Assembly (NCBI GenBank): GCA_977020255.1
Contig: CDROCS010001567.1
Span: 1 to 64,000 of the forward strand
Origin: Obrimoposthia wandeli
Lineage: Eukaryota
DNA length: 64,000 nt
Direction: 5' to 3'
The position numbers and the translations under genes were made by a program. Below the pieces are notes generated by a model, which was not told the origin of the DNA, searched no databases, and was given only the letters and a program-made list of their open reading frames with translations. Shown here one piece after another: positions 1-62,480 of this stretch (position 1 is its first letter; each line of letters begins with the position of its first letter).

Positions 1-435
1 TACAGGATAACCGGAATCACCTGGCAACTTATAATTGGATGTTTTCCATTTTTAGCAAAATATCTAATGCACCATCATCACGAGAACGAGTTGCGAGCCC
101 TCAAGAAGAAACAACACCAAACGAGAACCATGATGAGAGAACCAAGAAACTATCAAGAAGATGACAACGACGACGATAATGATAGTCCAGGGAGTATATG
201 CAAAAATACCAGGAAAACCAAAGATTCCGTTACCAGACAAGGAAGAAGTGGCGTTAAACCTATATCCAATGAAGGAATTGAAGGAAGAGAAGGAAAAGTT
301 CAAGAGAGGAATCTTAGTGATAAGAAGGCACAAAGTGAGCTACAGTGAAATTCCATAAGCAGAGGAAAAAGACAAAAGATAATTGAAGAATTCTGAAATC
401 TAGATATCAAATGAGAATCGAAGTAACCACCACAA

Positions 436-740
436 GTAGCAGTAACATTGAACGGAAGAGAATATCTTGCCGAAGTTGATACCGGATCTGCAGTATCAGT
501 ACTGAGTAAAGAAATCTTGTCATCAAAATTAAGAGAAGTATGTCCTAGAAAACAGACATTTGTTAACGTGAATGGTATAGATGTAGTGTCGGGAGGAACA
601 CTGAAATGTTCGTTGAATATCGATGGAAGAGCATTGCAGTTAAATGCTAGAATATTCACGAATTGCGGTAATTCCAGTCATGATTGGGATGGACGTAATA
701 CGAATGTTTGAAGGAATAATTATACTACCAAACAACAAGA
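436..740 (+). pseudogene. Retropepsin-like aspartic protease 1 (frameshifted)
   Basis: LNGREYLAEVDTGSAVSVLS (DTG active site at ~478), then after a frameshift VIPVMIGMDVI (the C-terminal I/LGxD motif). Confidence 0.85.
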
Positions 741-1003
741 GTTATAAGAATGACAGTTCAGTAAGAGAGATAAAAATGTTGAGAGGACCCATAGTCGAAA
801 AGGAAAAATGCACTACGTTCCGTATGGGAGGTTCGTACCCAGACAGAAAACGGGAAGCGCTAGCAAAGTCGATACTTCACTACAAAATGTAAATTTCGGA
901 CCTGGCTACGACGGGGAAAAATAACATATGTGAATCTGTGAGAAAGGGATCCCATGAGATTCGAGGAAGAAGAGACAGAAATATATTAGAACAGTACTAT
1001 TCA

Positions 1004-1985
1004 AAAGGAATGGCACGTAAAATGGCAAGATCAGGTTTAGAAATGTTAAACGCGACAAGCGGGGTACTGGTCAGGAGATAGTAGTACGATGCGTATGGTG
1101 TAGAGTAAAGTTCCAGAGAATGGGAAAAGAATGAAAACCCAATGAGACGTCATAAAAGAGATGCACCAAATTGTCCATTTCTTTTGAAACTGAAAACGTC
1201 AAACGTACCAGAAATCCAAACGGGAAAAGCACCCGATTTCGATTACAGTGACGGGATTCCAAAGGAGAATCCAGCTCTAATAACAGGAAGAGTAATAACG
1301 AATAAGTCGAATTGAAGATATATTCAAAGTTATGCGAAGTGAACGAATGTGACGAACAATATCGAAGTAACTTTCGAAGATCCAAGACTTAAAAAAATTG
1401 GCAAAAAGGGACTTTTTGCTATAAAAAAAGGATGGTAAAGACGTAATTAAATGCCACAAGTGTAAAAAAAGAACGAATTATCGACAGATATACTCTTGAG
1501 CTACCCTAAGAAAATTTTACATCATGAATTTTGCGAATTTTGTATTTTTAAAAACAAAATAAAGCAAAAAGAACAGAAAACAGAATATGTAATCGAATAC
1601 CAAAATCACACGAAAGAGATTTTGGCTCAACAAGACACACCGGTAGTGTCATTCGTGAGAAGGTTATATCCAAAAGAAGCAGAAAGAATCAAGAGGTGGT
1701 AGAATTAAAAATAAAAACTACGCGAAACGGATACGGATCGATTTTTAGAATTACTGCGAGATAAAGATGACGGTACAATCGAAACAAAGAAATGAGGACA
1801 CATAAATGAATTAGAATACGTACTAGAAGATCCGGAATGCACGCAGTTTGCATGGTCAACAAAATAGAAGTTGCCTTTCTACCATGCGGACATGTAAGAA
1901 CATGTTGGAGATGTGCGAATGAAATGGTATCATGTCCGATTTGTCGAAGAATAATAGATCGACAAGTGAGGGAAACATTAGATTT
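1004..1985 (+). pseudogene. Inhibitor-of-apoptosis (IAP)-like module, BIR-BIR-RING, frameshifted
   Basis: BIR1 ~1010-1190: RKMARSG..GTGQEIVVRCVWCRVKF/EWEKNENPMRRHKRDAPNCPFL. BIR2 ~1330-1550: LKKLAKR..DGKDVIKCHKC..ILHHEFCEFCIF. C-terminal RING ~1838-1980: C..CMVNKIEVAFLPCGHVRTCWRCANEMVSCPICRRII, the typical IAP RING. Confidence 0.88.
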
Positions 1986-2093
1986 CACTATCCAAACAAA
2001 GGAAGTGGACTGACAGAGTGTAATAATTCGATAAATACAATATACCATATGGGAAACATAAATGGAGCACAGCGACCAGCAGCCTATCATTAG

Positions 2094-2350
2094 GTAAATA
2101 ATTTAAGAGTAAAAGCCTTAATTGATACAGGTGCTGTAGCTTCGATAGTAAGTGAAGACTGTTTGACAGAGGAACAGAAACGAACAATGGCAGAACCAGA
2201 TGAATTCTTGGTATCGGTCAATGGAGACCCTGTAAAAGTGACGGGAATATTACCATGTACATTTATAATTGGACGTAATACGATCACTATACCAGTTAGA
2301 ATCATGAAAGAATGTCCTGAACCTACAATTTTGGGAGCTGGATGTATTAT
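2094..2350 (+). pseudogene. Retropepsin-like aspartic protease 2 (the canonical pol protease position)
   Basis: VNNLRVKALIDTGAVASIVSE...VSVNGDPVKVTG...PTILG(L)D; intact DTG. Confidence 0.9.
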
Positions 2351-2723
2351 CACAACTCAAAGGGATAAGTATTGATTTACAAGATCCAAGATTGAAGGAT
2401 AGCACATCAAACAGACAAATAAACCAAATTGATGTAATTATAGAGAATCCCATAAATCGGTAAAAGATCGCAATTTCTTATTCAAGGTCACATTATCAGA
2501 AGATAAAGGACCAGTTGTGTTCGAACCATCACGAGATTTCATAGAGAAATACGAATTACCAGTTAGCAGGTGCAATATGCCCTGATCGAAAACTTACAAA
2601 ATACCAGTTAGACTGATAATACAACCAACAATGACATCCTATTATACAGAGGAATGAGGTTGGGAACGATAGCACAGATGGAGAATCCCACCGTGTGTGC
2701 TATGAAACTCGATAAAGATACGA

Positions 2724-5420
2724 ATGATTACGAAAATAGTAATCCAATCAGAAAGATTGACAACTAGAGAAAAGGAACAATTACTTGATCTAATACATAA
2801 ATTTCCAAAAGTAATTGCAAAAAATCCATATGACATAGGAGAAACACCTGTCATAAAACATACAATACCACTGACAGAAGACAAAGTAGTCAGAAGAAGA
2901 CCATATCAGTACCATTACAGTTACAAGATGAAGTAAAAAGTCAGATAGAAGATATGTCACAAACTGGAGTAATTAGACCGAGTGTTTCGCCATTCTCCAG
3001 CACCTGTGGTGCTGGTAAAAAGAAGGATGGGAAAATGAGATTCTGTATAGATTTCAGAGAACTGAACAAGATCACAAGAAAAGATGTGTATCCATTACCC
3101 TCCGAAGAATCGAAGATGCTCGATAAATTGGGTAATTCAGATTATTTTACGACATTAGATTTGCAGAGTGGATACTGGCAAATCGAGATAGAGGAAAGAG
3201 GATAAACTGAAACAGCCTTTTCCTGCGGAGATGGATTATACGAATGCGAAAAGATGCCATTCGGACTGACAGGAGCTCCAGCAACATTTCAGCGTTGCAT
3301 GAATTTTGTACTCGCATCGTGTGCCACGATGGTTTATATCGATGACATAATATTTTCGAAAACGTTTGAAGAACATTTAAAAAATCTTGAAGTTGTATTT
3401 AAAAGACTGGAAAACGCTAAATTAAAAGTTAAACCTACAAAATGCGAATGGGCTAAAGAGCGAGTAACATTTTTAGGACATATAGTATCGAAAGAAGGCA
3501 TTCGACCTGATCCAGCAAAGATCCAAGAAAGTAAAAGCGCATTTAGCGCCAAAGACTGTTAAAGAGACCACAGAGTTTTTTGGGTGCTTGCGAATTATTA
3601 TAGACGATTTGTTGAACATTTTCAGATATAGCAACACCATTGAGAAAGTTGACGAGAAAGATGAGAAGTTCATATGGGGAGAAGAAGCCCAACAAGCGTT
3701 CGAGCATTTAAAAGAAAAGATTGATCAAAGCACCAATATTAGCGTTTCCAGATGCTAAACCGACAAATTCATACTCATGACAGATGCAAGTAACTATGCT
3801 GTAGGAGCGGTATTGGGACAAGAGGATGACGAAGGAAGAGAACACGTCATTGCGTATGCGAGTAGAGGATTAAACAGAGCCGAAAAGAGGATACTCTGTT
3901 ATCGAAAAGGAATGTCTAGCCATAGTGTATTCATGTAGACAGTACAACACTATTTGCTAGGACAAAAAGTATTTACTGTATACAGATCACAAACCACTAC
4001 AGTTCTTATATAAACTTATAGAAGATGAGATGAGTAGATTAAACAGATGGTTTCTAAAATTGGCCGAATTCGATCTAGAAATCCGTTATAGAACCGGAAA
4101 GTCGAATGGCAACGCAGATTGTTTATCGAGATTGACAAATGTAGACGAGAAAGGAAACATAATTCCAGAAGATGAAACCAATGATCAAAAAGGAGAAGCA
4201 AATCTACTGACGATTTTGCTAAAGACGGGTAAAATAGACAAAGAGATCATCAAAGAACAGAAAGAAGATGAAGAACTGAGTCTAATCAAAGAATTGTTGA
4301 AAAGGGGAATCTAAGCAATTGAAATGACGAAAAATACTCGATAAGAAGATCTTGTATATTGTCAATAATGTCGGAAAGATAGTAGTAGTAATTCCGAAGT
4401 CATTGAAAACAGCAGTGATGATCCAGTATCACGACGGAACACTAGGAGGACATCTGTCAGGACGAAAGACAATAGCCAGAATCAAAGAGAGAAGTACCGT
4501 GGGATGGTATGGAAGACGACATAAAACAATGGTGTAAACAATGTAAAGTATGTTTAACCAGAAAAGACACCGGAACTCGTACTAAAGTTCACTGAAACCA
4601 ATGCCAGTTCCCTTAGCACCAATGGAATTCACAGCGATGGATATATTGGGACCATTGAGAGAATCAAGTAAAGGAAACAAGTATGTCATAGTATTTACGG
4701 ATTACATGACAGAGATGGGTAGAAGCATATCCCATGCAGAACCAGAAGGCTGAAACAATGGCACAAATCTTAGTAGAAGAGATAATATTTCATTGCAGTG
4801 CCTAGAAAATTGTTGACGGATCAAGGTAAGAACTTCACTGGAGAAGTCATAAAAGCAGTATCGAAGATATTCGGAATCATGAAGTTACAAACTTCACCAT
4901 ATCACCCACAGACAGATGGTCTGGTAGAAAGGTTTAATAAAACTTTATGTATGATGGTACAATCCTATTGCTCAGACAAGCAAGAGGATTGGGATAAATA
5001 TTTACCTTCATGTTTATATGCTTACAGGAATTCAGTTCGAGAGACGACGGGTCACACCATTCTATCTGATGTATCTCAGACAGAACAATATGCCGATGAA
5101 TCTGGAGTGGACCGAGCCAACATCTCGAGTACCTAGAAACTGAACAATACATTGTCGTCATGAAGGAAAGGTTACAAGATGCTTGGACCAAAGCCGGATT
5201 GAAGTTGAAATTCAATCAAGAAGATTCTAAGGAACAATGTTAAAAAAGCAAAACCACATGAATTTAGAGTCGGAGATCAAGTGATGATATTGTCCGGAAA
5301 TTATCGGACATTCAAGTCTATCGTTTAAACTTCACAGACCATACAAAGGACCATACAAGGTGATCCAGACAACCTCAACAAATTTGAAAGTAATCAACGA
5401 AGAATCGGAATAAAGGAACC
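2724..5420 (+). pseudogene. pol: Gypsy pol (RT, RNase H, integrase), many frameshifts
   Basis: RT: KKKDGKMRFCIDFRELN, DLQSGYWQI, MPFGLTGAPATFQR, YIDD. RNase H: TDASNYAVGAVL, TDHKPL, NADCLSR. Integrase: HDGTLGGH..CKQC zinc domain, LLTDQGKNF, PYHPQTDGLVERFN, GPY motif near 5350. Confidence 0.95.
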
Positions 5421-7058
5421 GATGATTGTACATGCAAATCGATGCAAAGAAATTGCGTTAAAAATAAAGATAATGCGTCACGATATGAGTTAAGATCACA
5501 GAAATCGAAATCGAATACCAATACCATTAAACTTACACGAATGGTAAGTGATCGGAACTATAAACATGATGACGAGTGGTAGCGAGAAAAAACCAATAAT
5601 TGGTATGCTCAAGAATGAAGTACCAAGAGGAAAAGGAAGTAATCCGACACATCGCACCACAAGAGATATTAGAAGAAGACGAAGAGATAATAGTTGTTTT
5701 CGAAAAAACACAACCCACAGATGTGGCTAAAGAAGTCATTGTGAAAGATGCACTGACAAACGAATTTCTGTGCGAACTTAGGTGTCATACTACGACGGAA
5801 ATACATTAGTCGCAGCACTTTATCAAATTCCAATGTGTTTACGACTGAGAAAGTGATAATCCAGCTCTGACTGGCATAGGCTTATAGTTGTAGAACTATG
5901 ACGGTACTGAAGCAGGACTAGCCAGTCAGGAAGAAAAGAACCGGCCGGTGGTCACATACTGCATGGTACACCAAAAGACTCAAACAAGAATACCACGATG
6001 TAATAATGGTATTACGTAATTCACATGGGAAAAGAGATATCATGAGTCCATTTAATCGACGCTGACACTGAAAAGATAAATTGTCAGATGGACACCAAAT
6101 GCTTTGATGGAAAGACAATTGTACATGTTGTATACCAGAATCTCACCGGTTAGACACGGATCAAACGGAAGTATCTGTAAGGTTGAGCGTAATAGAAGGA
6201 TTCCATTCGCCAACCCATCCGGAAGTGACTAACAATAAAATCATCAAAGCAACAGCAGAGTTACGCATTGACAGCGGATACCGGAAGTGGGAAGCAAAAA
6301 ATAAAAAGCCACAAAGAATCAATATGATCCGAGAACAAGTGACCAACTCAATCAGCCAAAATATCATGCTGAAATAGTATCATCCGCACCAAGTGTAATT
6401 ACATCGATAAACGACAATTATAATTTTACTAAAAAATCGATGGCCGTCATCAACTGAGATACGAAGTAAACTTAATTAATTATGCGAAGACACCGATATC
6501 TAAGCTGAATGTTACCTATTTTGATGGATTGTCCATCATGAGTAAATTGGAAACAATTGTCATGTGCTATGGAGCAGTTCCAAATTGGAATACTTAAAGA
6601 TAGTGTAATACCCTATCCGATTCACAAACACGAAGGAAATCAATCCAGTTATTCTAACCCCTTCATTAATTTCAGTCCAGACAGACATACCAGAGTACCC
6701 TTCGAGCGAGTCTAGTGAAGACAGCGAACCGGAAGTAACGATACAGAATCAACAGAATCCGAAGATAACATAATAGAGCGATTCGGAAGAACCATGGAGG
6801 TTGAATTCGCTAAAGAGAGCAGAAAAAGACAAAACATAGAATTCGTGAAACAGAATATACAAGAAAGACGAATTAAATCTGCAGAAGAGACCGAATCGGA
6901 AGAAGACTCAACAAAGGAACAGACATCAGAGACAAAGATGAATACCTCTCCAGCAATACGAATGCTGAGAGGAAAGAAACTAATAGAAACTAACTAACAT
7001 CGACGAACAGATAGAGAAGAGATTAGAAAGACTAAAACTTGAAGAGTCAGAATTAATG

Positions 7059-7470
7059 CCACCAATGAGTGAGATCATTCCAGATGAAGTTATGCCTCGG
7101 AAGTAATGTGGAAGATGCAACAGATGAAAAAGAAACTGTTGGAACAAGGATAACATACGTGATCCCAACGTTACAATGAATCACAAATCACAATATCAGA
7201 CAATCAGAGCTATGACATTAGAGTAAAAAGACTCAATGGACGCTAATCTTCTCGAATGGTTTGTGAAACAAACGAAATACTTCACAGAGAACTCCGGAAC
7301 CAGGAAAAGTGTTAGTACATTGTCAGAAAGGAATTTCTCGATCAGCAACTCTAGTGATAGCATACCTAATAAAGACTAGACGAATGCAGGTACTAGAAGC
7401 GCTAAAATACCTACAGGAGAGAAAATGCCGAGCCAAATCCTATTTTTTGGACAGTTGGCAAATTACCAAC
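7059..7470 (+). pseudogene. Dual-specificity protein phosphatase domain (MKP/VH1-like), frameshifted
   Basis: Intact P-loop VLVHCQKGISRSATLVIAYLIK (HCx5R) at ~7312-7375. Upstream fragments read PMSEIIP..LGS..DA..LLEQGITYV.NVT; downstream LEALKYLQER. Confidence 0.9.
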
Positions 7471-7569
7471 TTCTGTTACCAGAGCTGTAAGACAGATGGA
7501 CGACGTACGGATCAAAAGGAAAGAATTTCCTCAAGCATTATCATTGACCGGGTTATTCTTAGCCGGAGT

Positions 7570-7945
7570 CGACAAAATTACACAGATAATGCGCAAAGTA
7601 TTTTTATGTCATCCAGGAGATATAGACACTGCTGGATTAAAGTTCCACAGTATCAACCGAGTAGTAACGTTGTTGAAGTCGGAAACGAGATAATTAGTCT
7701 GTGTCAAAATACTGAAGATGACACCACTCGATACATACATGCTTCCAATCGAGAGATAAACGATGCACAACAACATCTGACGAAATTGACTCAAACCATC
7801 CAAGCCGAAGTCACAGAAGGAAACGGCGTTCTGATATATCAGAAAAAGGTACAATGTTAGCGCCTACCATGGGTGTATCCTTGTTGGTAGAGTACCATGG
7901 TCACACGCCAGAAGAAGCGATGGTCTACATCAGAACAGAATGAAT
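7570..7945 (+). pseudogene. Second DSP-fold domain, probably catalytically dead
   Basis: ITQIMRKVFL..GDID..L.F.SINRVVTL; I.DAQQHL...IQAEVTEGNGVLIY..KGTMLAPTMGVSLLVEYHGHTPEEAMVYIR. This follows the DSP layout but has no Cys or Arg in the P-loop. Confidence 0.55.
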
Positions 7946-8039
7946 TGAATGCGGAATTCAAACCGTTACTCGTTCGAGAAATAGAGAAGTACGCCGAAAA
8001 GGAAGCAGCAACGAGAAACAAATGAAGCTACAACAACAG

Positions 8040-8290
8040 TGCCAAGCTTTCAATACCAAGGTGCTAGCGATAGGCTTGTTAAGTTGTTTAATGCCGATAA
8101 CGGGAGCACAAGGAAATAGACTCCAACCACGGAAATAGTTCCTGGTTCAACGAAATCCACAATTACACCATACAGTACCATACGCCGGCACTGATGATGC
8201 TATTAGTATTGTTAGGACTAATTGATGTGTGGATCATCCGAAAATGTCTTCGATCTATGAGAACCGACAGTAAAAGATTTCGGTTGTAAA
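8040..8290 (+). pseudogene. Small membrane-protein remnant
   Basis: Signal-like KVLAIGLLSCLMPITGAQG, then TM-like TPALMMLLVLLGLIDVWIIRKCLR; the TM segment is conserved in copy 2 (60590-60670). Confidence 0.5.
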
Positions 8291-8291
8291 G

Positions 8292-8663
8292 ATGAAAAGA
8301 CCAAATGGACCAACGAACAAAGTGCTTGTGTATCTAGACGAAAGGATCGAGGACAACATAGTAAACGAAGCGATATTTTACCCACAAAACAGAATACTGA
8401 ATCAATTTCGAATAGATTACGAAGCTGACCGACAGCGCACACTTGACCGAATATCAACAACATTCGCCGGATGCAAGCGAAGTAAACGAGTTGTAAAGGA
8501 AATACAAAAAGATGCTGATACAAAAGGACCAACGTACATATTCGACGGCAGTGTCATCAAAACACGTGAGTATGGAAGTAAGAGAGTGATAATCGAAACG
8601 ATGAAGGACATAAAACATGCTTGTCCGCAAAAACGGATTTGGAAAGTTGACGATACAAGGTAA
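8292..8663 (+). CDS. Accessory ORF of unknown function (123 aa)
   Basis: Open frame starting MKRPNGP; a clearly homologous, decayed sequence lies at 60684-61060 in copy 2. Confidence 0.55.
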   Translation: MKRPNGPTNKVLVYLDERIEDNIVNEAIFYPQNRILNQFRIDYEADRQRTLDRISTTFAGCKRSKRVVKEIQKDADTKGPTYIFDGSVIKTREYGSKRVIIETMKDIKHACPQKRIWKVDDTR

Positions 8664-9344
8664 ACCAGTACAGTTGATTATCGGAAGAAATGGAATCGAG
8701 AGATGTCAAAACAACGACAGATAACAAAACGATCTAATCAGAAACAGATATCTCTCAAACGATTGATAATTAAAACCCTTTGCAAAAGGTCAGTCAAGGC
8801 CCTGTGCACCGTTGCACAAGTTGATCTATGGAGTAGTAATTGGATTGGTACTGCAAGCCATGCCAACCAGTAAACCGAATTGATGACACTATCCGAATAT
8901 AATTTACATTTGAGAAATCTAGACAACACCCTAGAAATAATCAAGACATCCCACAGTAGAGCCGTGATGATCATGTGTGTAAAGGATGTCCAGGACGAAT
9001 GTGTATAGTCCCAGCGACCGAAATGATAACACTTAATGGACATTATGGAGTTAGTGTTGTCACATGTGAAGACTACATATTTGGACAAACTAAAATAGTG
9101 CTTCTCAGTGACATGTCAACCAAAGTGCACACAAATTTAAAATATTAACCATCAAGAGTAAAGGAATACCAGCAGTACGTTATGGTATTCTAGAATTAGT
9201 TAATCAATACTGGCACTGATCTGGATTTATAATATTGATACTACTCATCTTGTTTTTGTTGTACAAAGATAGAGTTGGATCAAAAAAGAAACGTCATGAT
9301 CTCGCAAGACGAGCAGGTCAAATGAATTTACAAAATTCAACACA

Positions 9345-10715
9345 ATGATACCAAGACCAGCATTCCTAAATGAACCAGCACCAGAGTATCAGCCAACGAT
9401 ATACGAACATATCGAGGAAAGACCATACTACATGAGTCACTTGAGTTATCCTAGAGAAGTTCCTGAGATTAGGAACCAGACGATCAGAGGAATCATGCTG
9501 ATCATGCAAATCACCACGACCGAGGCTGGTTATGAGATCGTGATCAGTAAATGGAGACAAAATACGATACGGGCGTTATCCATAAAAATACCTCTAATAA
9601 AAACAAATTACGTAATAGACATTCACCTACAAACATCAGCAACCGAAAATGTCGATCAGAAATTGTATGTCATTCGCCAGATCAAATTAAAGATTGACCA
9701 ACATAAACTTTACTACCGACTGATATTATTCTACCATGAAAAGGTATTGTACCTACGAATAACAATATCAAAAAGGAAACGGATTGTTCAAATTATCCGA
9801 ACAAAGTCATTAATATTGCCTAACGACGAGCGCATCTGGAAAGTTGTCGACAGGATTATGATCACAGGTAGACGACGTAAAACCGTATGGAATTCCGTTA
9901 GATTATTCTTCAGATTGTTAGAAACTGACAAAGTAACAGTGTCGTGTCCCAATCCAGATGGTGGAATCAGATCCGAAATTCAAAACCAAATGTTAGTACC
10001 ACATTTTGATACAGAACGTCTATGTAACCGAATTCCCAGCAATGCTAGAGAGACCTCTACCATAATCATAGTAATAACAGGTGAAATATCCTACATAACT
10101 CTAAGATACCAGACACGTCGATTTCGTGGACTCGGTATAAGTATCAAACCCAGGAAAATCATTTCCGGAAAACCAATCATAGTCATAAAAAAGAAGGCAA
10201 GGGTAAACGGAAGTAAACGCCATTCCGAGAAGCCAAAAGTAATCATAACAAAGACAGAAGCGAAAGAAAAAGAGCTCAATTCCAGAAACCAAAGTACAAT
10301 TATTAAGAGGACAAGAGTGAGGGGAACGATCCCACTAGATCCCAAACATCATTTCCAATCCAAAATAATAATACCTGTTCCATCAGAAACAAAACACCCA
10401 AATCCACGAATTTTTAGAAAATCGGACATAATACATGGAGACCGATCAAAACCCATGGAAATGTCATTCGAACCGACAAACAACAAAATGAAGTATGATT
10501 ATCAACCATCAGACAGCGGAATAACAGCGGTCAATGCTCTAATTGGAATGGCCGTAGTGTCAACAGCAGTGGTTCTATTGACAGTTGTTTGCGTAAAAGG
10601 CAGTCAAATATGCCCAAGAATACGACGAAAATGCGAAGGACTGCGATGCTGTGACACACCCATCATGGAGGAAGTGGAATTGCGACCCTTACCTCCGCCT
10701 CCCATCAAGATATGA
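9345..10715 (+). CDS. Large accessory ORF with a C-terminal transmembrane helix (456 aa), possibly env-position protein
   Basis: Uninterrupted ORF; TM ALIGMAVVSTAVVLLTVVCV followed by a Cys/Arg tail and LPPPPIKI; homologous open ORF at 61280-62350. No recognisable env family motif, so the env identity is unproven. Confidence 0.75.
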   Translation: MIPRPAFLNEPAPEYQPTIYEHIEERPYYMSHLSYPREVPEIRNQTIRGIMLIMQITTTEAGYEIVISKWRQNTIRALSIKIPLIKTNYVIDIHLQTSATENVDQKLYVIRQIKLKIDQHKLYYRLILFYHEKVLYLRITISKRKRIVQIIRTKSLILPNDERIWKVVDRIMITGRRRKTVWNSVRLFFRLLETDKVTVSCPNPDGGIRSEIQNQMLVPHFDTERLCNRIPSNARETSTIIIVITGEISYITLRYQTRRFRGLGISIKPRKIISGKPIIVIKKKARVNGSKRHSEKPKVIITKTEAKEKELNSRNQSTIIKRTRVRGTIPLDPKHHFQSKIIIPVPSETKHPNPRIFRKSDIIHGDRSKPMEMSFEPTNNKMKYDYQPSDSGITAVNALIGMAVVSTAVVLLTVVCVKGSQICPRIRRKCEGLRCCDTPIMEEVELRPLPPPPIKI

Positions 10716-10838
10716 TGAGTCAGAGGAGGTTGTAGATAAATTAGTGTGTGAAATATGTAGAAATATCTAGAAGTGATTGTACAAATAGTAGAAATATATA
10801 AAACTCATGTAGAAATTAATCATCATCATGTATTTAGA

Positions 10839-11138
10839 ATGTCCGAAGAATGCCCAATATGTTTGGAAGATCTAACCGAACGAAGAACAAGACCCGAAAC
10901 CTGCAACCATTTACACCACGAGGAATGTTTATCGACATGGATCAGAACTTATGGACAGTTCGGACATCCAACATACCCTTGTTGCCCTGTATGCAGAAGA
11001 CAATTCGCAAGATTCATCATGTTAGAACCCAACCAAGAGGATGTATATGTACAGGTGGTATTCTGTTGGAAGAATTTCGGAGAGTGTTGGTGTTATTACT
11101 GTTTGTCAGATCGACAAAATCAGACCACTTTTGTGTAA
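10839..11138 (+). CDS. RING-H2 protein 1 (putative E3 ligase)
   Basis: MSEECPIC..CNHLHHEEC..CPVC (C3H2C3) plus a tail FCWKNFGECWCYYC. Confidence 0.85.
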   Translation: MSEECPICLEDLTERRTRPETCNHLHHEECLSTWIRTYGQFGHPTYPCCPVCRRQFARFIMLEPNQEDVYVQVVFCWKNFGECWCYYCLSDRQNQTTFV

Positions 11139-11198
11139 ACATCACACAACCACCAGTCCTCAATCGAGCCCAAATTCAACATCAACCCTCCCACAGTA

Positions 11199-11512
11199 AT
11201 GTCTGGAGAATGTTCCATCTGCTACGAGAGCATCGTGGACTTCTACACCAAGCCCAACAACTGCGACCACCTCTTCCACGTCGAATGCCTCGAGACGTGG
11301 ATCCCCATTGCCAACAGCAACAATCCCCTCGACTTCCCAACCTGCCCGATGTGCAGAGCGACCTTCTCAGTACACTACGTGTACAACCAGGGACAGCCTC
11401 AAGCAGTGGTACCCATCGTACACTGCTGGAAAACATCTGCGATTGCTGGTGCTCGTTCTGCGTGAAGGAGCGAAGCACAGGCCAGCCAATCCCCAACAAT
11501 AATCGAAGGTAA
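11199..11512 (+). CDS. RING-H2 protein 2 (1-nt deletion near its C-terminus)
   Basis: MSGECSIC..CDHLFHVEC..CPMC. The tail HCW/NICDCWCSFC lies in a shifted frame; copy 2 reads HCWKDICDCWCIFC in frame. Confidence 0.85.
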
Positions 11513-11835
11513 CTTTCTGACTTGAACGTGACATCATGAACTACCCTGTGTATCGCATACCGCGATAAATTAGCTACCATAATTGTAATCATAATTATAT
11601 AATCTTGTGAACTGTAAATTGACCATTACCATTTTTATGTATGATGTTTAACTGAAATTGTAATTATTATACTGAATTTCTAAAAAGACAATTTTTTATG
11701 CTTAGTGTGAATGCGTAAACATGCCTAAATCGAAACAAAACTCGGTAGGATTAGATAACTAAGGATTCGTTTTGAAATAAAATTTAAATTAACGATGAGA
11801 ACGGTGAACCCCAAATTGAAAGGAGTTATTTTCTT

Positions 11836-12372
11836 ATGCAGATGAAGTGCTCTGTATGTATGGAGAAGATTTGGGCGGTATCAGCATCCCCTGTCGGCTG
11901 CCGTCACAAATTTCACGAGGAGTGCCTCTATTTGTGGGCCAAGGCTCGACCCCCCGGCCATATCACATGTCCACTGTGCCGGACACCCTTTGGCAAATGG
12001 ACGCTCCAGAGCCGTGGAAGGCACAAGGGCACCCGATCGCCTGCCAGCTGCATTGGTGGCATACATTGCCAATGCTACGTATGTCTCGCACGCCGGCGCG
12101 ACACACAACTGGGCATCCGCGAGAGATGGCGGTCTAGTCGAGACTGCCACTCGTGGTTCCAGGCCAGACGTCTCTGGATAGAAAATCACGCGATGAACGG
12201 GCAGTATTTCGACCTGTTTGTCGAGCGTACATTCATACTCCGGAGCCAACAACTACACCTGTACAACGGGGACAGTCCGTCCTTTCCCGACCTACCCCTG
12301 GAGCAGGTCCTGCGCTACCTGGCCAGTCGGAACCAGCCGACAATTACAATTGACCTAACTTATGACAATTGA
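11836..12372 (+). CDS. RING-H2 protein 3
   Basis: CSVC..CRHKFHEEC..CPLC plus a tail SCIGGIHCQCYVC; open 178 aa. Confidence 0.85.
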   Translation: MQMKCSVCMEKIWAVSASPVGCRHKFHEECLYLWAKARPPGHITCPLCRTPFGKWTLQSRGRHKGTRSPASCIGGIHCQCYVCLARRRDTQLGIRERWRSSRDCHSWFQARRLWIENHAMNGQYFDLFVERTFILRSQQLHLYNGDSPSFPDLPLEQVLRYLASRNQPTITIDLTYDN

Positions 12373-12544
12373 TCCTTTCCTCCCTTCTTTCCTTCCTAAT
12401 CCTTGGTTATGCATGTAGTTTTGTGTATAGATAATAATGTATAGTCTGAGACTTGCTCCAAATTATACATTATGTTTCCCACTAAAAACCGGGATTTTGA
12501 GAAATTTTGTTTTGGGCATGTTTGATGAATTGAATGACTGATTT

Positions 12545-15500
12545 TGTAGGGATGGACCTAAAATCAACAGCCAGAGGCTTATAAGAGTAAAATCGATACG
12601 TTCCGGGGACGTAACTTTTTGGAACCCCGAGATATGTTAGATTTAGGAATGGAGAAATTATTAAAAATTAAATAATTTATAGTGAAAATGAAAATCCTTG
12701 AAAGCAAGGTTAGAATTTAATTTAATAAATTTTAAAAATCAAAATTAAAATTATTGGGTTAAATAAGATTAAATGTTAGAGGACCACGAAGGTCGTGTGA
12801 AATGTGTAGGTATGTATAGAAATTTATATCTAACAAAAGGGCCCCAAAAAAGATATAGCTCTGCAAGTTATTGCAAGAAAAGAAGACTAATTGGAAAATT
12901 GGAAAAAAGGAAAAGAAGAAGTGCAAACCGGAATTCAGTCGACGTCAGCAGCCACGTCCCGACAGCTGTTCCTGAAGTGAGAAAATTTAATTAATTTATT
13001 TGAAATAAATACTTATCGCAGCAGGCCAGAAGACTGAGTGACAGATCACGTCACCGGGAAGTCATTGGAAAGGCCAGAGCTAAGTAGGCAGCTGGTTTGT
13101 GTCGACTGTGTGAGTCGTTGATTTGAAGTCGCCGAAGGGAGTCGAGGAAAAAGACTATATAGTCTACGGAAATTAGCCCAAAAAATCAATAGTGCAGAGA
13201 GACTAAATTCAGTAGAGAAAACAGAATTCTCAGCCTATACCGACCGATCGGAATTCAACGCCTCAAATTCTCGGTGGAATTCAGTAAGTCCAGAACAAGC
13301 TCTCTAAATTGAATAAAATAATCTGTTGTCGTGAAAGAAATAATAAGATAATTGAATTTTGAGATCATAAGATAAATTGAATAAAATAATCTGTTGTCGT
13401 GAAAGAAATAATAAGATAATTGAATTTTGAGATCATAAGATATTTTGAATAAAATAATCTGTTGTCGTGAAAGAAATAATAAGATAATTGAATTTTGAGA
13501 TCATAAGATATTTTGAATAAAATAATCTGTTGTCGTGAAAGAAATAATAAGATAATTGAATTTAAAGATAATAAGATAATCTGTTGTCGTGAAAGAAATA
13601 ATAAAGAATGGTGAATTTTTGAGATCATAAGATATTTTGAATAAAATAATCTGTTGTCGTGAAAGAAATAATAAGATAATTGAATTTTGAGATCATAAGA
13701 TATTTTGAATAAAATAATCTGTTGTCGTGAAAGAAATAATAAGATAGATCTGAAAGAAATAATAAGATAATTGAATTTTGAGATCATAAGATATTTTGAA
13801 TAAAATAATCTGTTGTCGTGAAAGAAATAATAAGATAATTGAATTTTGAGATCATAAGATATTTTGAATAAAATAATCAAAGAAATAATAAGATAATTGA
13901 ATTTTTGAGATCATAAGATATTTTGAATAAAATAATCTGTTGTCGTGAAAGAAATAATAAGATAATTGAATTTTGAGATCATAAGATATTTTGAATAAAA
14001 TAATCTGTTGTCGTGAAAGAAATAATAAGATAATTGAATTTTGAGATCATAAGATATTTTGAATAAAATAATCTGTTGTCGTGAAAGAAATAATAAGATA
14101 ATTGAATTTTGAGATCATAAGATATTTTGAATAAAATAATCTGTTGTCGTGAAAGAAATAATAAGATAATTGAATTTTGAGATCATAAGATATTTTGAAT
14201 AAAATAATCTGTTGTCGTGAAAGAAATAATAAGATAATTGAATTTTGAGATCATAAGATATTTTGAATAAAATAATCTGTTGTCGTGAAAGAAATAATAA
14301 GATAATTGAATTTTGAGATCATAAGATATTTTGAATAAAATAATCTGTTGTCGTGAAAGAAATAATAAGATAATTGAATTTTGAGATCATAAGATATTTT
14401 GAATAAAATAATCTGTTGTCGTGAAAGAAATAATAAGATAATTGAATTTTGAGATCATAAGATATTTTGAATAAAATAATCTGTTGTCGTGAAAGAAATA
14501 ATAAGATAATTGAATTTTGAGATCATAAGATATTTTGAATAAAATAATCTGTTGTCGTGAAAGAAATAATAAGATAATTGAATTTTGAGATCATAAGATA
14601 TTTTGAATAAAATAATCTGTTGTCGTGAAAGAAATAATAAGATAATTGAATTTTGAGATCATAAGATATTTTGAATAAAATAATCTGTTGTCGTGAAAGA
14701 AATAATAAGATAATTGAATTTTGAGATCATAAGATATTTTGAATAAAATAATCTGTTGTCGTGAAAGAAATAATAAGATAATTGAATTTTGAGATCATAA
14801 GATATTTTGAATAAAATAATCTGTTGTCGTGAAAGAAATAATAAGATAATTGAATTTTGAGATCATAAGATATTTTGAATAAAATAATCTGTTGTCGTGA
14901 AAGAAATAATAAGATAATTGAATTTTGAGATCATAAGATATTTTGAATAAAATAATCTGTTGTCGTGAAAGAAATAATAAGATAATTGAATTTTGAGATC
15001 ATAAGATATTTTGAATAAAATAATCTGTTGTCGTGAAAGAAATAATAAGATAATTGAATTTTTGAGATCATAAGATATTTTGAATAAAATAATCTGTTGT
15101 CGTGAAAGAAATAATAAGATAATTGAATTTTGAGATCATAAGATATTTTGAATAAAATAATCTGTTGTCGTGAAAGAAATAATAAGATAATTGAATTTTG
15201 AGATCATAAGATATTTTGAATAAAATAATCTGTTGTCGTGAAAGAAATAATAAGATAATTGAATTTTGAGATCATAAGATATTTTGAATAAAATAATCTG
15301 TTGTCGTGAAAGAAATAATAAGATAATTGAATTTTGAGATCATAAGATATTTTGAATAAAATAATCTGTTGTCGTGAAAGAAATAATAAGATAATTGAAT
15401 TTTGAGATCATAAGATATTTTGAATAAAATAATCTGTTGTCGTGAAAGAAATAATAAGATAATTGAATTTTGAGATCATAAGATATTTTGAATAAAATAA

Positions 15501-16508
15501 TCTGTTGTCGTGAAAGAAATAATAAGATAATTGAATTTTGAGATCATAAGATATTTTGAATAAAATAATCTGTTGTCGTGAAAGAAATAATAAGATAATT
15601 GAATTTTGTGATCATAAGATATTTTGAATAAAGTAATCTGTTGTCGTGAAAGAAATAATAAGATAATTGAATTTTGTGATCATAAGATATTTTGAATAAA
15701 GTAATCTATTGTCGGGAAGACAATTGAATTTTAGTAAATTACTGTCAAGTAAATTATTGTCGGGAAGACAATTTAAATTGTAGTAAATTATTATTGAGTA
15801 AATTATTGTCGGGAAGACAATTTGAATTTGAATTTTGGTAAAATTATTGTCAAGTAAATTATTTTCGTGAATAAAAATTGAAGCTTTAAATAGTAATTTA
15901 ATCTCGTGAAGACAAATTGAAAATAAACTGATTGTTGGAATCTAAGGAATTTGATAACGTATCCCTATTGTTCATAAGGGAATCTAAACTTAAGAGGACA
16001 TCAATATTGAAGCTAAAATTCAAATCAGTACAGTTTAGAGCAACAAGCTCCCTAAATTCATTCTCTGTTTTAGAGCTTCAGCTCTTTAGGCTACTCAAAT
16101 TTTAGATCAACAGCTCTCTAAAATCAATCCCTATTTTTAGAGTAAAGACTCTAGTGACTCAAACAAACATAACCGTAAAATCGATACGTGGTTCATCCCC
16201 ACTTGTGTAGAGACTTACAGAAGTCTTAGGAATTTTACTACCATTTTTTAGAAAATACGTACGTAAACGTATTGTTGTGTTAGTTACGTGAATTACAAAT
16301 AAACAATTTCCTACATTAGAACAAGTTGTTTTTGCACCCTTCAGAATAAGAGACATCAAATCAAATACCTTCAGATAGAACAAGAGATAGGCAACCATAA
16401 CACTAAGTAGGCCACGACCAACTTTAAGACCTGCTTCTAATCGAACTCACGTTGGGGCCATCCGCACATAAGAGGATCTGTACCAAGTTTCGTATAGAAA
16501 CCCCAACA
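12545..16508 (+). repeat. Putative ~4 kb 3' LTR (left boundary approximate)
   Basis: Non-coding. 16170-16508 aligns by eye with the reverse complement of 56885-57290 (ACCTTCAGAT..GGCCACGA..GAACTCACGTTGGG..GAGGATCT..TATAGAAACCCCAACA). 12779-12805 shares AGGACC..GAAG.GTCGTGTG.AAAT with 53837-53864. No clear PPT found. Confidence 0.6.
13311..15712. repeat. Tandem array of a 68-bp unit, about 35 copies
   Basis: Unit GAATAAAATAATCTGTTGTCGTGAAAGAAATAATAAGATAATTGAATTTTGAGATCATAAGATATTTT (period checked: 13925 to 13993). Near-identical centrally, irregular at the left end and decaying at 15700-15920. No spacers, so not CRISPR. Confidence 0.97.
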
Positions 16509-58050: not shown

Positions 58051-61000
58051 GCGCTAGAGATGGTTGATAAATTAGGTAATTCAAACTACTTTACGACATT
58101 GGATTTGCAAAGTGGATACTGGCAAATCGAAAAAGAGGAAGAGGATAAACACAAAACAGTTGTTTCCTGTGGAGATAGATTGTACGAATGTGAAAAATGC
58201 CATTCGGACTGACAGGAGCGCCAGTAACATTTCAGTGTTGCATGAAGTTTGTGCTCGCATCGTGTGCAAACACGATGGTTTATATTGATGACATCATAAT
58301 ATTTTCTAAGTCGTTCGAAGAACATCAAAAATCTTGAAGTTGTATTTAAAAGACTGGAAAATGCTAAATTAAAAGTAAAACCTACAAAATGTGATACGAG
58401 CAAGTAATATTTTTAGGACATATAGTATCAAAAGAAGGCATCTGACCTGATCCAGCAAAGATCGAGAAAGTAAAACCACATCCAGCTCCAAAGACTGTTA
58501 AGAAAATACAGAGTTTTTTAGGTCTTGCGAATTATTACAGACGATTTGTTAAACATTTTTCCGACATAGCAACACCATTCAGAAAAGAAGCACAACAAGC
58601 GTTTGAGGATCTAATGGAAAGACTGATAACAGCACTGATATAAGCGTTTCCGGATATAAATTGAAAATTCATACTAATGACATATTCAAGTAACTATGCT
58701 GTAAGAGCAGTTTTAGGACAAGAGGATGAGAAAGGAAGAGAATACATCATCACATATGCCAGTAGAGGGTTTAATAGAGCAGAAAGAGGATACTCTGTTA
58801 TTGAAAAAGGAATGTCTAGCCATAGTATATTCGTGTAGACAGTTCAGACACTACTTGCTAGGACAAAATGTATTCCTGTAGACAGATCACAAACCACTTC
58901 AGTTCTTGTATAAATATAGAGACGAGATGAGCAGTTTAAACAGATGGTTTCCGAAATGGGCTGAATTTGACCTAAAATTCCGATATAGAACCGGAAAGTC
59001 GAATGGCAACGCAGATTGTTTGTCGAGATTGGCAAATGTAGACAAAAAAGGAAACATAATACAAGAATAAGGTCAATATGAAGTCAATAACCAGAGAGGA
59101 GAAGCAAATCTACTGACGATTTTGCTGAAAACTGGTAAAATAGACAAAGAAATCATCAAAGAACAGAAGGAAAACGAATAATTGAGTCTAATTAAAGAAC
59201 TGTTAATGAAAGGAGATCTAAATGATGAAATGATGAAATGAAGAGAAAATACTCTATAAAAGAAGGAATCTTGTATATTGTCAACAATATCGGAAGGATA
59301 GTAGTAGTAATTCCGAAGTCATTGAGAGCGACAGTGATGATCCAGTACGCGATGGAACACTGGGAGGACATATGTCAAGACGAAAGACAATATCGAGAAT
59401 CAAAGAGAAATACTATTGGGATGGTATGAAAGACGAGATAAAACAATGGTGTAAACAATGTAAAGTATGTTTAACCAGAAAGGATACAGGAACTCATACT
59501 AAAGTTCCATTGAAACCGATGCCAGTTTCGTTGGCACCAGTGGAATTCACAGCGATGGATATATTAGGACCATTGAGAGAATCAAGTAAAGGAAATAAGT
59601 ACGTCATAGTATTTACGAACTACATGACGAGGTGGGTAGAAGCATACCCTATGCAGAACCAGAAGGCTGAAACAATAGCACAAATCATGGTAGAAGAGAT
59701 AATATTTCGATATAGAGTACCTAGAAAACTATTAACAGATAAAGAGAAGAATTTCATCGGAGAAGTAAAAGCAGTATCAATGATATTAGGGATCATGAAG
59801 TTACAAACTTCACCATATCACCAACAAACTGACAGGTTAGTAGAGAGGTTAAATAAAACTCTATGTTTGATGGTACAACCTTATTGCTCCGATAAGCAAG
59901 AGGATTGGGATAAGTATTTACCTTCATGTTTATATGCTTACAGTAATTCAGTTCGAGAGGCGACGGGTCACACACCATTCTATCTGATGTATCTCAGACA
60001 GGAGCTCAGGAACAAAGAGCCGATGATAGTACATGCGAACCGATATAAACTGGTACCGAATAAAGATAATGCGTCACGATATGAGCTAAGATCACAGAAA
60101 TTGAAGCCGAATACCAATACAATTAAATTTACACGAATGGTAAATGATCGAAATTACATAAATACGATGACAAATGGTAACAATGAAAAACCAGTGAGAA
60201 TTGGTATGCTTAGAAGGAAAGAGAAGTAATAAGAAGTAATCCGACACATCATACCTCAAGAGATATTAGAAGAAGACAAAAGAGATCATAGTCGTTTTCG
60301 AAAAAACACAACCGACAGATGTAGCGAGAGAAGTTATTTTGAAAGATGCATTAACAAAAGAATTTCTGTGCGAACTTAGAGGGTCATATTTTGATGGAAA
60401 TACACTAGTCGCGAAACTTTTTCAAAACTTCAATGTGTTTACGACTGAGAAAGTGATCATAGAAATCACACTGACACCAAACGTAGTTGCATGGCAGAAC
60501 TATGACAGTACAGAAGTAGGACTAGTCAGTCAGGAAGAAAAGGAACCGGCTGGTGATCAAATACTTCATGGAACACCGACACTGATGATGTTACTAGTGT
60601 TGATAGGACTAATCGATGTTTGGTTAATCAGAAAATGTTTTCGACTCATAAGAACCGACAAAGAAAGATTCTAGTTTGTGAAAATGAAGAGACCAAATGG
60701 ACCAAAGACGGAAGTACTTGTTTACATAGACAAAAGAATAGAGGATAAAATAGTAAATGAAGCGATATATTACCCACAAAACAGACAACTGAATCAATTC
60801 CGAATGGACTACGAATCTGACTAACAGCACACACTCGATAGAATATCAGAAACGTTCGCAGGATGTTGGCGAAGAAAACGAATTGCGAAGTAAATACAAA
60901 AAGAAGCGGATACAAAAGGTACAACATATATATTCGACGGCGATGTCATCAAAACACGTGAGTATGGAAGTAAGAGAGTGATAATCAAAAACAAAGAATG

Positions 61001-62350: not shown

Positions 62351-62480
62351 CAAGTCAAAGGAGGTTGTAGATAAATTATTGTGTAAAAATATGTACAAAA
62401 TGTTAAGAAAGTGAGTGTAAAAAACAAATGTAGAATTATGTAGAAATTATGTAGAAATTAATTGTCATCATGTATTTAAA

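Follow-up and report, generated by a model that had tools for sequence, protein, structure and literature searches.

A putative Burro-like Ty3/Gypsy errantivirus with proposed cell-survival cargo in a flatworm genome

The element in the window and its copies

The window, namely the whole stretch of 64,000 nucleotides analyzed here, begins at base 1 of its contig, and its positions 1–16,508 comprise the 3′ two-thirds of a Ty3/Gypsy element truncated by the contig start (Table 1). Gag and the 5′ LTR are missing from the window only because of this starting point; together with the rest of env, they lie beyond the contig start, upstream of base 1. All parts lie on the plus strand. Pfam searches of the three forward frames (stops replaced by X) scored the BIR, the RING of the IAP, an aspartic protease, RT, RNase H, integrase, DSPc and the three RING-H2 domains, and the order PR-RT-RH-IN, found in both the window and other copies, is that of Ty3/Gypsy (Metaviridae). 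The original prediction, made from the window alone, had listed two proteases, an IAP, RT/RH/IN, two DSP folds, at least two TM proteins and three RING-H2 proteins. All of these were present on the plus strand and in the predicted order (the TM proteins as hydrophobic segments after the DSPs in a hydropathy scan), and the predicted end at 16,508 was exact, since the 3′ LTR runs from TGTT (12,635) to AACA (16,508). The prediction had missed the end of a gB-type env at the window start, the three IPT/TIG-like repeats and the family of thousands of copies.

Table 1. Features of the element in the window.
Feature	Position	Strand	Evidence or remark
C-terminal end (second hydrophobic segment) of gB-type/class III Env	1..70	+	Base 1 just past the first Env TM
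Aspartic protease 1, DTGS motif	427..698	+	PF13975, E 2e-6 in another copy
IAP module, whole, in frame between proteases	954..1948	+	BIR, BIR2, RING-HC
BIR1	954-1178	+	BIR, E 8e-11 (Pfam)
BIR2, degenerate	1360-1541	+	BIR, E 0.008 (Pfam)
RING-HC of IAP	1835-1948	+	IAP-type RING, E 8e-10 in window
Aspartic protease 2, DTGA motif	2073..2340	+	PF13975, E 4e-4 in window, 7e-8 in another copy
Reverse transcriptase	3041-3485	+	Pfam, E 6e-31
RNase H	3736-4129	+	Pfam, E 4e-20
Integrase: H2C2, core, GPY-type C-terminus	4385..5446	+	Pfam (zinc and core in window)
Three tandem beta-rich repeats, ~80 aa each	5681..6596	+	Probably IPT/TIG-like, after integrase
DSP1, MAP-kinase-phosphatase-like catalytic domain	7083..7464	+	Intact HCxxGxSRS loop
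DSP2, pseudophosphatase	7592..7984	+	DSPc, E 7e-7 (Pfam)
C-terminal membrane-module chain	8060..10715	+	Hydropathy scan and sequence
Signal-like/hydrophobic segments	8060-8106, 8182-8242, 8799-8875, 9477-9525	+	Hydropathy
TM segments	9207-9260; final about 10539-10595	+	Hydropathy
RING-H2 ORF 1, 99 aa	10839..11138	+	PF13639 (zf-RING_2), E 3e-9
RING-H2 ORF 2, 88 aa in window	11199..11465	+	PF13639, E 2e-9
RING-H2 ORF 3, 178 aa	11836..12372	+	PF13639, E 3e-7
3′ LTR	12635..16508	+	TGTT...AACA, 3,874 bp
68-bp tandem array inside 3′ LTR	13,309-15,718	+	35 copies
Second, older copy	58056..63365	+	Internal deletions, 76-86% identity

The older copy retained RT-RH-IN, the first IPT repeat, the membrane modules and RING ORFs 1 and 2 in unchanged order; its DSP pair has been deleted, and a remnant of the third RING ORF follows, to about 64,000. 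The first copy is itself unusually broken, being separated from four other copies by 124–143 indel events over the first 7–9 kb, compared with 16–67 among those four.

The element spans 22.8–24.8 kb in eight LTR pairs; two other pairs gave 25.9 kb and 21.8 kb. Copies with paired LTRs and target site duplications (TSDs), for which the original prediction had urged a search, were found. A 4-bp TSD flanks 8 of the 12 LTR pairs examined (7 of 10, one untestable, plus 1 of 2) and is missing from 3 of the 11 testable pairs. Paired LTRs were 89.5–100% identical over 780 bp (≥99.5% in 5 of 9 pairs), with two further pairs at 99.9% and 95.6%. The motif TGGTGCCCCG, a primer-binding site which we take to be of the elongator tRNA-Met type, lies 8 nt from the 5′ LTR end in 9 of 9 copies and three more. 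No plain purine run directly precedes the TGTT of the 3′ LTR in the window or four other copies, in which a conserved non-purine motif occupies that position. The copies were thus inserted by integrase, as marked by their TG..CA LTRs, 4-bp TSD and primer-binding site. Host domestication of the element was rejected in view of the dispersed copies with TSDs.

Exact probes matched the assembly 7,402 (LTR end), 4,256 (RT), 4,606 (BIR), 3,431 (DSP1) and 5,195 (RING2) times, corresponding to 3,400–5,200 internal copies, and reversed-probe controls gave 0. Among the 44 RT matches on contigs C1–C51, BIR, DSP1 and RING2 were found at the expected spacing in 33, 23 and 34, respectively. The prospect that other copies would lack the cargo, raised in the original prediction, did not materialize: 42 of the 44 carry one or more of these probes and only 2 carry none. 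No RNA data set was among the sequencing runs listed for the element. Two runs of unrecorded kind from one sample covered 30 of 30 bins; both may be the source of the assembly and therefore lend no independent support. No interpretable splice joint was found in the two runs.

The predicted long reading frame, its domains and selection

The overlapping open frames of different copies point to a single ORF of ~5,400 aa, which would encode Gag, a ubiquitin-like domain, a Bcl-2-like region, Env, protease 1, IAP, protease 2, RT, RNase H and integrase, followed by three IPT/TIG-like repeats, DSP1, a pseudo-DSP and several membrane modules. The longest listed frame has 4,895 aa, and the whole ORF was assembled across copies, not from any single one: Env to DSP2 is a single open frame in three of the eight copies chosen for long frames, and the stretches from Gag to the start of Env, from DSP1 to TM and from TM to the end of the ORF are each uninterrupted in at least one copy. 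At the level of sequence, Gag, Env, Pol and most of the cargo share one frame. The three RING-H2 ORFs are separate from, and downstream of, the long ORF.

In other copies, Pfam recovered Gag (Retrotrans_gag, E 0.008; one CCHC knuckle, 1e-5), a gB/class III Env and then PR-RT. Env was assigned to PF24664, which three ORFs in another copy matched at E 4e-53, 1e-23 and 6e-11; the protein is long, with a signal-like segment, 15 Cys and a TM. Given a gB-type env joined in frame to gag before it and pol after it in full copies, the retrovirus-like character proposed in the original prediction is stronger than could be seen from the window. A ubiquitin-like domain precedes Env (PF00240, E 0.003), the PDB matches of which were dominated by ubiquitin, ISG15 and SUMO. 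The pre-Env region also shows a weak likeness to Bcl-2 (PF00452, E 0.073, below the cut-off). This region had no PDB Bcl-2 match and no significant similarity to 4 of the 11 host Bcl-2 loci (best E 0.44). Its single-sequence AlphaFold model, all-helical but uninformative (pLDDT 39), matched no fold at E 0.001, viral and cellular Bcl-2 folds among the weak rows being uncounted.

Protease 1 of the window is too broken to score by Pfam, and protease 2 occupies the usual position ahead of RT. The BIR scored E 0.0045 in the window itself. The best PDB match of the IAP was cIAP1 (E 1e-15), and its RING was nearest to those of cIAP1/2 and XIAP. No Pfam match was found at E 1 in the spacer between PR and RT, for which the published dUTPase-like call in Burro used HHpred. 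The three post-integrase repeats are probably IPT/TIG-like, an identity taken from ESM Atlas feature matches to PF01833 TIG clusters (0.90–0.91, 155–165 shared features) as a lead, not proof. They resembled one another (z 5.8–10.6; 0 of 500 shuffles), had neither a Pfam nor a PDB profile match, and gave an uninformative single-sequence AlphaFold model (pLDDT 33).

DSP1 scored E 4e-16 for DSPc in the window and 1e-40 in other copies. Its best PDB match was DUSP10/MKP-5 (E 1e-23), with DUSP4, DUSP1 and DUSP2 also among the best. DSP2 lacks the catalytic Cys and Arg, yet is conserved. In the membrane-module chain, a Pro-rich tail follows the final TM, and the long ORF ends at 10715. These modules had no Pfam or Atlas identity, their last ectodomain had no usable Atlas match, and comparison with the ectodomains in nine segments of relatives revealed nothing clearly similar (best z 4.8). 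When the DSP-to-TM ORF served as a phmmer query, the best 150 matches were all to DSPs, so that the search is uninformative on the membrane modules. RING-H2 ORF 1 is open with an ATG in 4 of 4 other copies, and ORF 2 has 101–104 aa in other copies. Of all the modules, ORF 3 varies most between subfamilies: its aa identity with its counterpart in the L012 copy is 65%, in contrast to 97% when the last membrane ORFs of L007 and L012 are compared.

The substitution patterns show that all of the tested cargo has been kept by selection. Among copies of the family, synonymous against nonsynonymous changes number 20 against 0 in DSP1, 16 against 2 in DSP2 (over three non-independent comparisons) and, for protease 1, three against 0 in each of three comparisons (9 against 0 in total); dN/dS is 0.02–0.09 for the IPT repeats (0.22 versus the old copy) and 0.14–0.22 for Env, the latter indicating purifying selection. 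Against the diverged old copy, it is 0.43 for the last membrane module and 0.37 for RING-H2 ORF 1. RING2 stands at 0.63, and the IAP shows little change, synonymous or nonsynonymous (dN/dS 0 to 0.55). The heavily broken window copy, and nests at other copies (C3543), might suggest a chance nest of insertions, or host exons that were captured and carried along neutrally. Nevertheless, cargo under purifying selection is not a chance nest, and the idea is refuted by the fixed spacing of the cargo in thousands of copies, the frame shared with pol, and the unchanged order in a copy 14–24% diverged; we give it practically no credence.

Relatives and the origin of the cargo

In the multi-copy COX1 found on contigs that bear the element, AAA stands for Asn (4 of 8) and ATA for Ile (6 of 10), as in table 9, the mitochondrial code of flatworms and echinoderms. 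The host is called a platyhelminth based on this COX1 and the likeness of Env to those of Schmidtea elements. The RT tree comprised 48 rows (the best 45 of 112 full-length matches plus Env-fused rows; Schmidtea elements not included), and a 12-row clade including four Env-fused polyproteins received an SH-aLRT of 100 in this quick tree. The relatives in the RT clade of the element keep Env in frame, and their cargo differs, with ankyrin in P0017 and an exonuclease-like ORF in L097. Inspection by eye of the ends of eight relatives showed a post-integrase type I membrane protein in every one. No Env-region homologue was found in 118 candidates among proteins of 2,646–5,000 aa, no relative among viral contigs, and no cargo match in 58 metagenome loci (35–52% identity) outside the close clade.

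Burro elements are over 30 kb long, have thousands of copies and carry one ORF of ~5,000 aa (PMC6431247). Their plan is Gag, Ubi/SUMO-like, BCL2-like, Env, PR, RT, RH, IN, BIR, accessory ORFs and tandem repeats, with cargo including MATH, Smc and ankyrin, two to three CCHC knuckles and a dUTPase-like region between PR and RT (PMC6431247). Like the Schmidtea mediterranea elements Burro-1 to -4/GYPSM1 and their Burro-like counterpart in Dugesia tigrina, the present element has a giant Gypsy ORF with Env between gag and pol. It shares with Burro the CCHC Gag, Ubi/SUMO-like domain, BIR and accessory ORFs, and likewise has tandem repeats, a flatworm host and copies in the thousands; for the BCL2-like region before Env, there is a weak candidate here (E 0.073). 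It differs in being shorter (23–26 kb) and having one CCHC knuckle, and Pfam gave no MATH, ankyrin or Smc match in 26 ORFs from several copies and no dUTPase match. Unlike Burro as described in PMC6431247, it encloses a whole BIR-BIR-RING IAP between two proteases and carries three IPT/TIG-like repeats, a DSP of MKP type with a pseudo-DSP, the membrane-module chain and three RING-H2 ORFs.

As Gag-UBL-BCL2-Env-Pol in frame plus BIR is the published Burro layout, we regard the element as a Burro-like errantivirus, not a new class, and, being without MATH or ankyrin, as none of Burro-1 to -4. The original prediction was right in pointing to Burro and to a BIR in it, whereas its phosphatase in Burro finds no support in two sources: the word occurs in neither PMC6431247 nor PMC13524379. 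Its suggestion of an undescribed combination is weakened for the overall plan. The DSP pair, the IPT repeats, the protease-flanked IAP, the membrane modules and the three RING-H2 ORFs are described in neither source. No LTR element with phosphatase and IAP cargo was found in the literature searched (most subscription papers and Repbase lay outside it), in which these two papers were the relevant ones.

GAG-ENV-POL elements of flatworms have been catalogued by Chary and Hayashi (PMC13524379), with HSV/gB-type errantiviruses in Platyhelminthes, Bryozoa and Nematoda. The Schmidtea elements have 1–215 intact copies, under a definition stricter than our probe counts. The present element resembles Smed_errantivirus_1-6 (group C1a) in Gag-Env-Pol order, gB-type Env, multiple copies and a flatworm host; by eye, the cysteines and motifs of Env match those of the six Schmidtea Envs, with roughly one third of the residues identical. 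It is rather improbable that the element is an already annotated Burro family (a longer Schmidtea element or that of Dugesia tigrina) with phosphatases noted elsewhere. The front-end layout is shared (PMC6431247), and Smed_errantivirus_5 and _6 span about 17–18 kb with no cargo described in PMC13524379, which treats gag, env and pol only ('accessory', 'apoptosis' and 'RING' do not occur in it). On the other hand, the MATH, Smc, ankyrin and multiple knuckles of published Burro, and the limited identity of Env, speak against this explanation. Anakin is likewise an LTR retroelement with a chuvirus-like/gB-type glycoprotein, but belongs to BEL/Pao and resides in mosquito (PMC7642597).

Baculovirus IAP, poxvirus VH1 and F1L, and viral RING ligases exemplify the accessory genes of large DNA viruses, and two BIRs plus a RING is the baculovirus IAP layout. 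By domain type, the cargo falls into their functional classes, namely block of apoptosis, dephosphorylation of signaling proteins and targeted ubiquitination, whereas here it is part of a predicted retroelement polyprotein. We consider it very unlikely that the cargo was taken as a block from such viruses, despite the viral class III fusogen and the one full-length IAP homologue found, which shares the layout at 22% identity. The IAP RING is nearest to cellular cIAP1/2 and XIAP, and the modules lie dispersed along the ORF and vary from one clade member to another, which fits piecemeal capture. A VH1 origin of DSP1 was rejected, as the nearest proteins are cellular MKPs and VH1 is absent from the best 60 of its 76 PDB matches. 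DSP1 looks host-derived rather than poxviral, and an MKP-like rather than VH1-like phosphatase points to convergence, not descent. The virus-like toolkit of the original prediction thus stands by functional class and not by demonstrated origin.

Proposed expression, function and significance

Judging from domain order, a full-length RNA would give one polyprotein of ~5,400 aa. Env and the C-terminal modules would enter the ER by way of internal signal peptides and be freed there by signal peptidase. The cytosolic parts would be set free by the aspartic proteases, and protease 1, located after the Env anchor and ahead of the IAP, would be the likely releaser of the latter. The RING-H2 proteins would come from their separate ORFs via subgenomic RNA or reinitiation. 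The cargo may keep a cell that produces the element alive and quiet. Apoptosis would be countered by the IAP and by the Bcl-2-like domain, the MKP-like DSP1 would counter JNK/p38 stress signaling with the pseudo-DSP as a substrate adaptor or regulator, and the RING-H2 ligases would degrade host restriction factors. The cell would then survive heavy retrotransposition and shed Env-bearing particles.

Alternatively, cell-to-cell spread may have been lost with Env retained, and the cargo may act cell-autonomously, so that expressing stem cells resist apoptosis or stress, out-compete their neighbors and pass insertions to the germ line or fission progeny. The cargo is indeed dominated by intracellular survival and signaling domains, and the very high copy number needs no infection. 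We nonetheless hold this unlikely, as Env is long, keeps its signal-like segment, 15 Cys and TM under purifying selection, and stays in frame in relatives of the same RT clade. Altogether, the element is probably a Burro-like GAG-ENV-POL Ty3/Gypsy errantivirus that inhabits a rhabditophoran flatworm, is autonomous and has recently been very active, with the expression and cell-survival function proposed above.

More tentatively, Burro-like elements could possibly be still-active enveloped retroviruses of flatworms with host-captured accessories on a poxvirus scale, the post-integrase type I membrane protein being a hallmark of the clade. This family would add an MKP/pseudophosphatase pair, a protease-released IAP, IPT decoys and signal-peptidase-released surface proteins, and switching off JNK/p38 apoptosis in stem cells would have led to thousands of copies.

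With 3,400–5,200 internal copies of up to ~24 kb, many of them partial, the family may account for several percent of the assembly, and such abundance bears on flatworm genome size and assembly difficulty. To our knowledge, host-control genes are rare in retroelements, with Burro as the known exception. In the present family, Burro-type cargo proves to be modular and maintained by purifying selection, and its range reaches beyond apoptosis and ubiquitin domains to MAP-kinase signaling and cell-surface proteins. Clear assays exist for DSP1, the IAP and the RING-H2 proteins, all of them small natural domains, and flatworms permit RNAi, so that the possible manipulation of stem-cell survival by a selfish element would be directly testable.

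Presence, copy number and age of the element

The giant Burro-like Ty3/Gypsy element at the head of the window is a genuine feature. When Pfam was run on the three forward frames of this copy with stops read as X, the domains appeared in the order BIR, IAP-type RING, aspartic protease, RT, RNase H, integrase, DSPc and three RING-H2, and an LTR closing the copy was found as well; the parts that the original prediction had listed here were correct. As the window starts at base 1 of its contig (assembly of 1.35 Gb in 6,912 contigs), the missing 5' part of the element reflects an assembly cut. The + strand of positions 1-12,600 contains 37.7% A with a strong AT skew, and its long frames are split into pieces. 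Over 7-9 kb, 124-143 indel events (about 60% of them single-base) separate the window copy from other copies, and its breaks are probably a mixture of contig-end error and decay.

DNA searches of the assembly returned at least 40 matches with 91-100% identity. Probes derived from the window, counted as exact matches in an assembly that does include bacterial contigs and may include duplicate haplotypes, hit 7,402 (LTR ends), 4,256 (RT), 4,606 (BIR), 3,431 (DSP1, the phosphatase) and 5,195 (RING2) sites, while reversed control probes hit none. On contigs C1-C51, 44 RT hits were listed, of which 33, 23 and 34 had BIR, DSP1 and RING2, respectively, at the expected distance and strand. All three accompanied 19 of these hits and only two had none of them, so that the cargo recurs in other copies, as the original prediction of a complex retrovirus-like family implied. 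Copies with paired LTRs and target site duplications (TSDs), which it had proposed to seek, were also found: a 4-bp TSD was present in 8 of the 12 LTR pairs examined, absent in three and untestable in one. Eight pairs delimited elements of 22.8-24.8 kb, one an element of 25.9 kb and one a shorter element of 21.8 kb.

Over the last 780 bp, the LTRs of nine pairs were 89.5-100% identical (at least 99.5% in five of the nine), and two further pairs showed 99.9% and 95.6%. All 127 DSP-pair matches scored were 100% identical after rounding, with open frames of 411-4,895 aa, albeit these were scored among the best candidates only and are biased to young copies. The window holds a second, old copy that is 76-86% identical and retains the module order with the DSP pair deleted. 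Given the near-identical LTR pairs and this old copy, the family has been recently active and is also old.

Features of the window and of other loci (L numbers) of the same assembly
Feature	Position	Strand	Remark
Giant element, window copy	1-16,508	+
RING ORF 3	11836-12372		compared with L012:2844
Region 5' of 3' LTR	12587-12634		15-nt motif directly 5' of LTR
LTR of window copy	12,635-16,508	+
68-bp tandem array	13,309-15,718		35 copies, inside LTR
15-nt motif, second occurrence	16174-16188		inside LTR
Glutathione synthetase exon (host)	24580-25062	-	PF03917 E 1e-15
Inverted-repeat element, 1.2 kb	25085-26311		adjoins glutathione synthetase exon
Other LTR retroelement fragments	30937-32840	-
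	41127-41642	+
	55759-56211	-
	56879-57024	-
Low-complexity host protein, exons	49985-53450	+
Tc1/mariner-type transposase	54579-55691	-	open 370-aa frame; HTH and DDE_3 hits
Old copy	58,056-63,365
LTR-interior arrays, other loci	L005:1921-3278; L079, L085, L089, L093, L095, L012
Primer-binding site	L005:4072-4098
5' leader arrays, 39 and 49 bp	L005:4126-5166
Second family	L012:5615-10000; L097:1-3991		directly 3' of one copy

Among the LTR fragments, the one at about 56.9-57.0 kb is a reversed remnant of the giant family's own LTR end. The last exon of the low-complexity host protein, which gave no match in Pfam, presumably resembles the INCENP IN-box.

The tandem units of the LTR interior are wholly different between subfamilies (68/72, 49/56, 29, 20/30 and 69/45 bp), despite LTR ends and coding DNA that remain close; the 5' leader is also filled by arrays. 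The primer-binding site begins 8 nt past the 5' LTR in 12 of the 12 copies seen. No purine tract was found ahead of the 3' LTR in the copies seen, and the 15-nt motif directly 5' of that LTR is found again inside it. Priming may be non-standard.

Predicted polyprotein, cargo modules and selection

The front part, read from other copies, encodes Gag, with one CCHC and a Retrotrans_gag hit at E 0.008, and then a domain like ubiquitin (E 0.003), whose PDB matches are ubiquitin, ISG15 and SUMO. A helical domain with a weak likeness to Bcl-2 (E 0.073) and a class III fusion glycoprotein come next; the glycoprotein matches PF24664 at up to E 4e-53 and contains a signal-like segment in its interior. 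Among eight copies picked for long frames, the 10 kb from Env to DSP2 (the pseudophosphatase) form a single frame in three; the remaining five are broken within the Env-to-BIR part and open from BIR to DSP2. Other open frames run from Gag to Env, from DSP1 to the third hydrophobic module, and from that module to the ORF end. As overlapping frames from different copies cover every junction, the modules probably form a single ORF of about 5,400 aa, pieced together here from several copies.

The IAP (BIR, degenerate BIR and RING-HC; cIAP1 closest among solved structures) lies between two proteases, each of which retains its DTG motif. Three repeats 3' of the integrase resemble one another (z 5.8-10.6) and are tied by ESM Atlas to IPT/TIG clusters (0.90-0.91); as their 155-165 shared features fall below the 170 typical for true family members, the IPT/TIG assignment is a lead. 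The catalytic loop of DSP1 is intact, with DUSP10/MKP-5 as the closest match (E 1e-23), and DSP2 is without catalytic residues. Towards its 3' end the ORF alternates signal-like segments, ectodomains for which Pfam and ESM Atlas gave no identity, and TM helices. Three RING-H2 ORFs, each with its own ATG, are open in four of four other copies. RING ORF 3 is 65% identical between the window and L012, and the last membrane ORF about 97% between the same subfamilies, suggesting module swapping or fast evolution of RING ORF 3.

Comparing one copy with three others and summing across these non-independent comparisons, synonymous to nonsynonymous changes were 20:0 in DSP1, 16:2 in DSP2, 42:7 in the IPT repeats, 9:0 in protease 1, 21:13 in Env (dN/dS 0.14-0.22) and 8:6 in the IAP. 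Against the old copy, dN/dS was 0.14 for integrase, 0.22 for IPT, 0.43 for the last membrane module, 0.37 for RING1 and 0.63 for RING2. Purifying selection maintains the cargo, with the weakest signal in RING2 and the IAP.

Host, relatives and possible role of the cargo

In many near-identical COX1 copies, one of them sharing a contig with the element, AAA codes for Asn and ATA for Ile (table 9). Together with the likeness of Env to Schmidtea elements, this code suggests that the host is a rhabditophoran flatworm. A second COX1 type on a 27-kb contig fits table 5, is of an animal and is probably foreign. The assembly also holds many bacterial-type COX1 contigs and many nuclear host COX1 copies.

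In the RT-RH region the element shares 57-62% identity with ten polyproteins, which form a 12-row clade with the element and a second family of the same genome (SH-aLRT 100 in a quick tree). PF24664 lies in frame ahead of the protease in four of the ten, and a C-terminal signal-like segment, ectodomain and TM helix were seen by eye in all eight relatives whose ends were viewed. The second family (62% identical) encodes a signal-ectodomain-TM protein after its integrase, followed by a DEDDh exonuclease-like ORF (RNase_T E 0.003). P0017, a related polyprotein of 2,387 aa, continues 3' of the integrase with protease-like repeats, an IPT-like domain, ankyrin repeats, a further protease and a type I membrane protein; its single repeat ahead of the ankyrins scored z 6.2, 4.8 and 0.9 against the three repeats of the element.

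By all features fully testable here, the element belongs to the gB-type GAG-ENV-POL errantiviruses of flatworms. PMC6431247 gives Burro an ORF1 of 4,873-5,140 aa with Gag, MATH, Ubi/SUMO-like, BCL2-like, Env, PR, dUTPase-like, RT, RH, IN, BIR, ankyrin, Smc and AIR1 RING domains, Env lying in frame between gag and pol; the word phosphatase is absent from that paper. Compared with Burro-1 to -4, the element is Burro-like, but shows neither MATH nor ankyrin and is shorter. Nine flatworm GAG-ENV-POL elements are catalogued in PMC13524379, the excerpts of which hold no mention of their cargo under the terms searched, and those of PMC11410931 and bioRxiv 10.64898/2025.12.11.693146 give no further domain detail. 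Judged against such published summaries, part of the cargo appears undescribed; some of these modules may already be listed in the figures of Grohme 2018 and Jurka 2007.

The element combines integrase-type insertion with cargo held in frame under purifying selection. IAPs inhibit caspases and ubiquitinate, MKPs inactivate JNK/p38, class III glycoproteins are membrane fusogens, and internal signal peptides of viral polyproteins allow cutting by signal peptidase. The main rival explanation is that the same cargo gives a cell-autonomous advantage to stem cells, without spread between cells. In the mechanism that we propose, signal peptidase and the two element proteases would cut the polyprotein, and the freed cargo would inhibit apoptosis and stress signalling, whereby producing cells may survive and shed enveloped particles.
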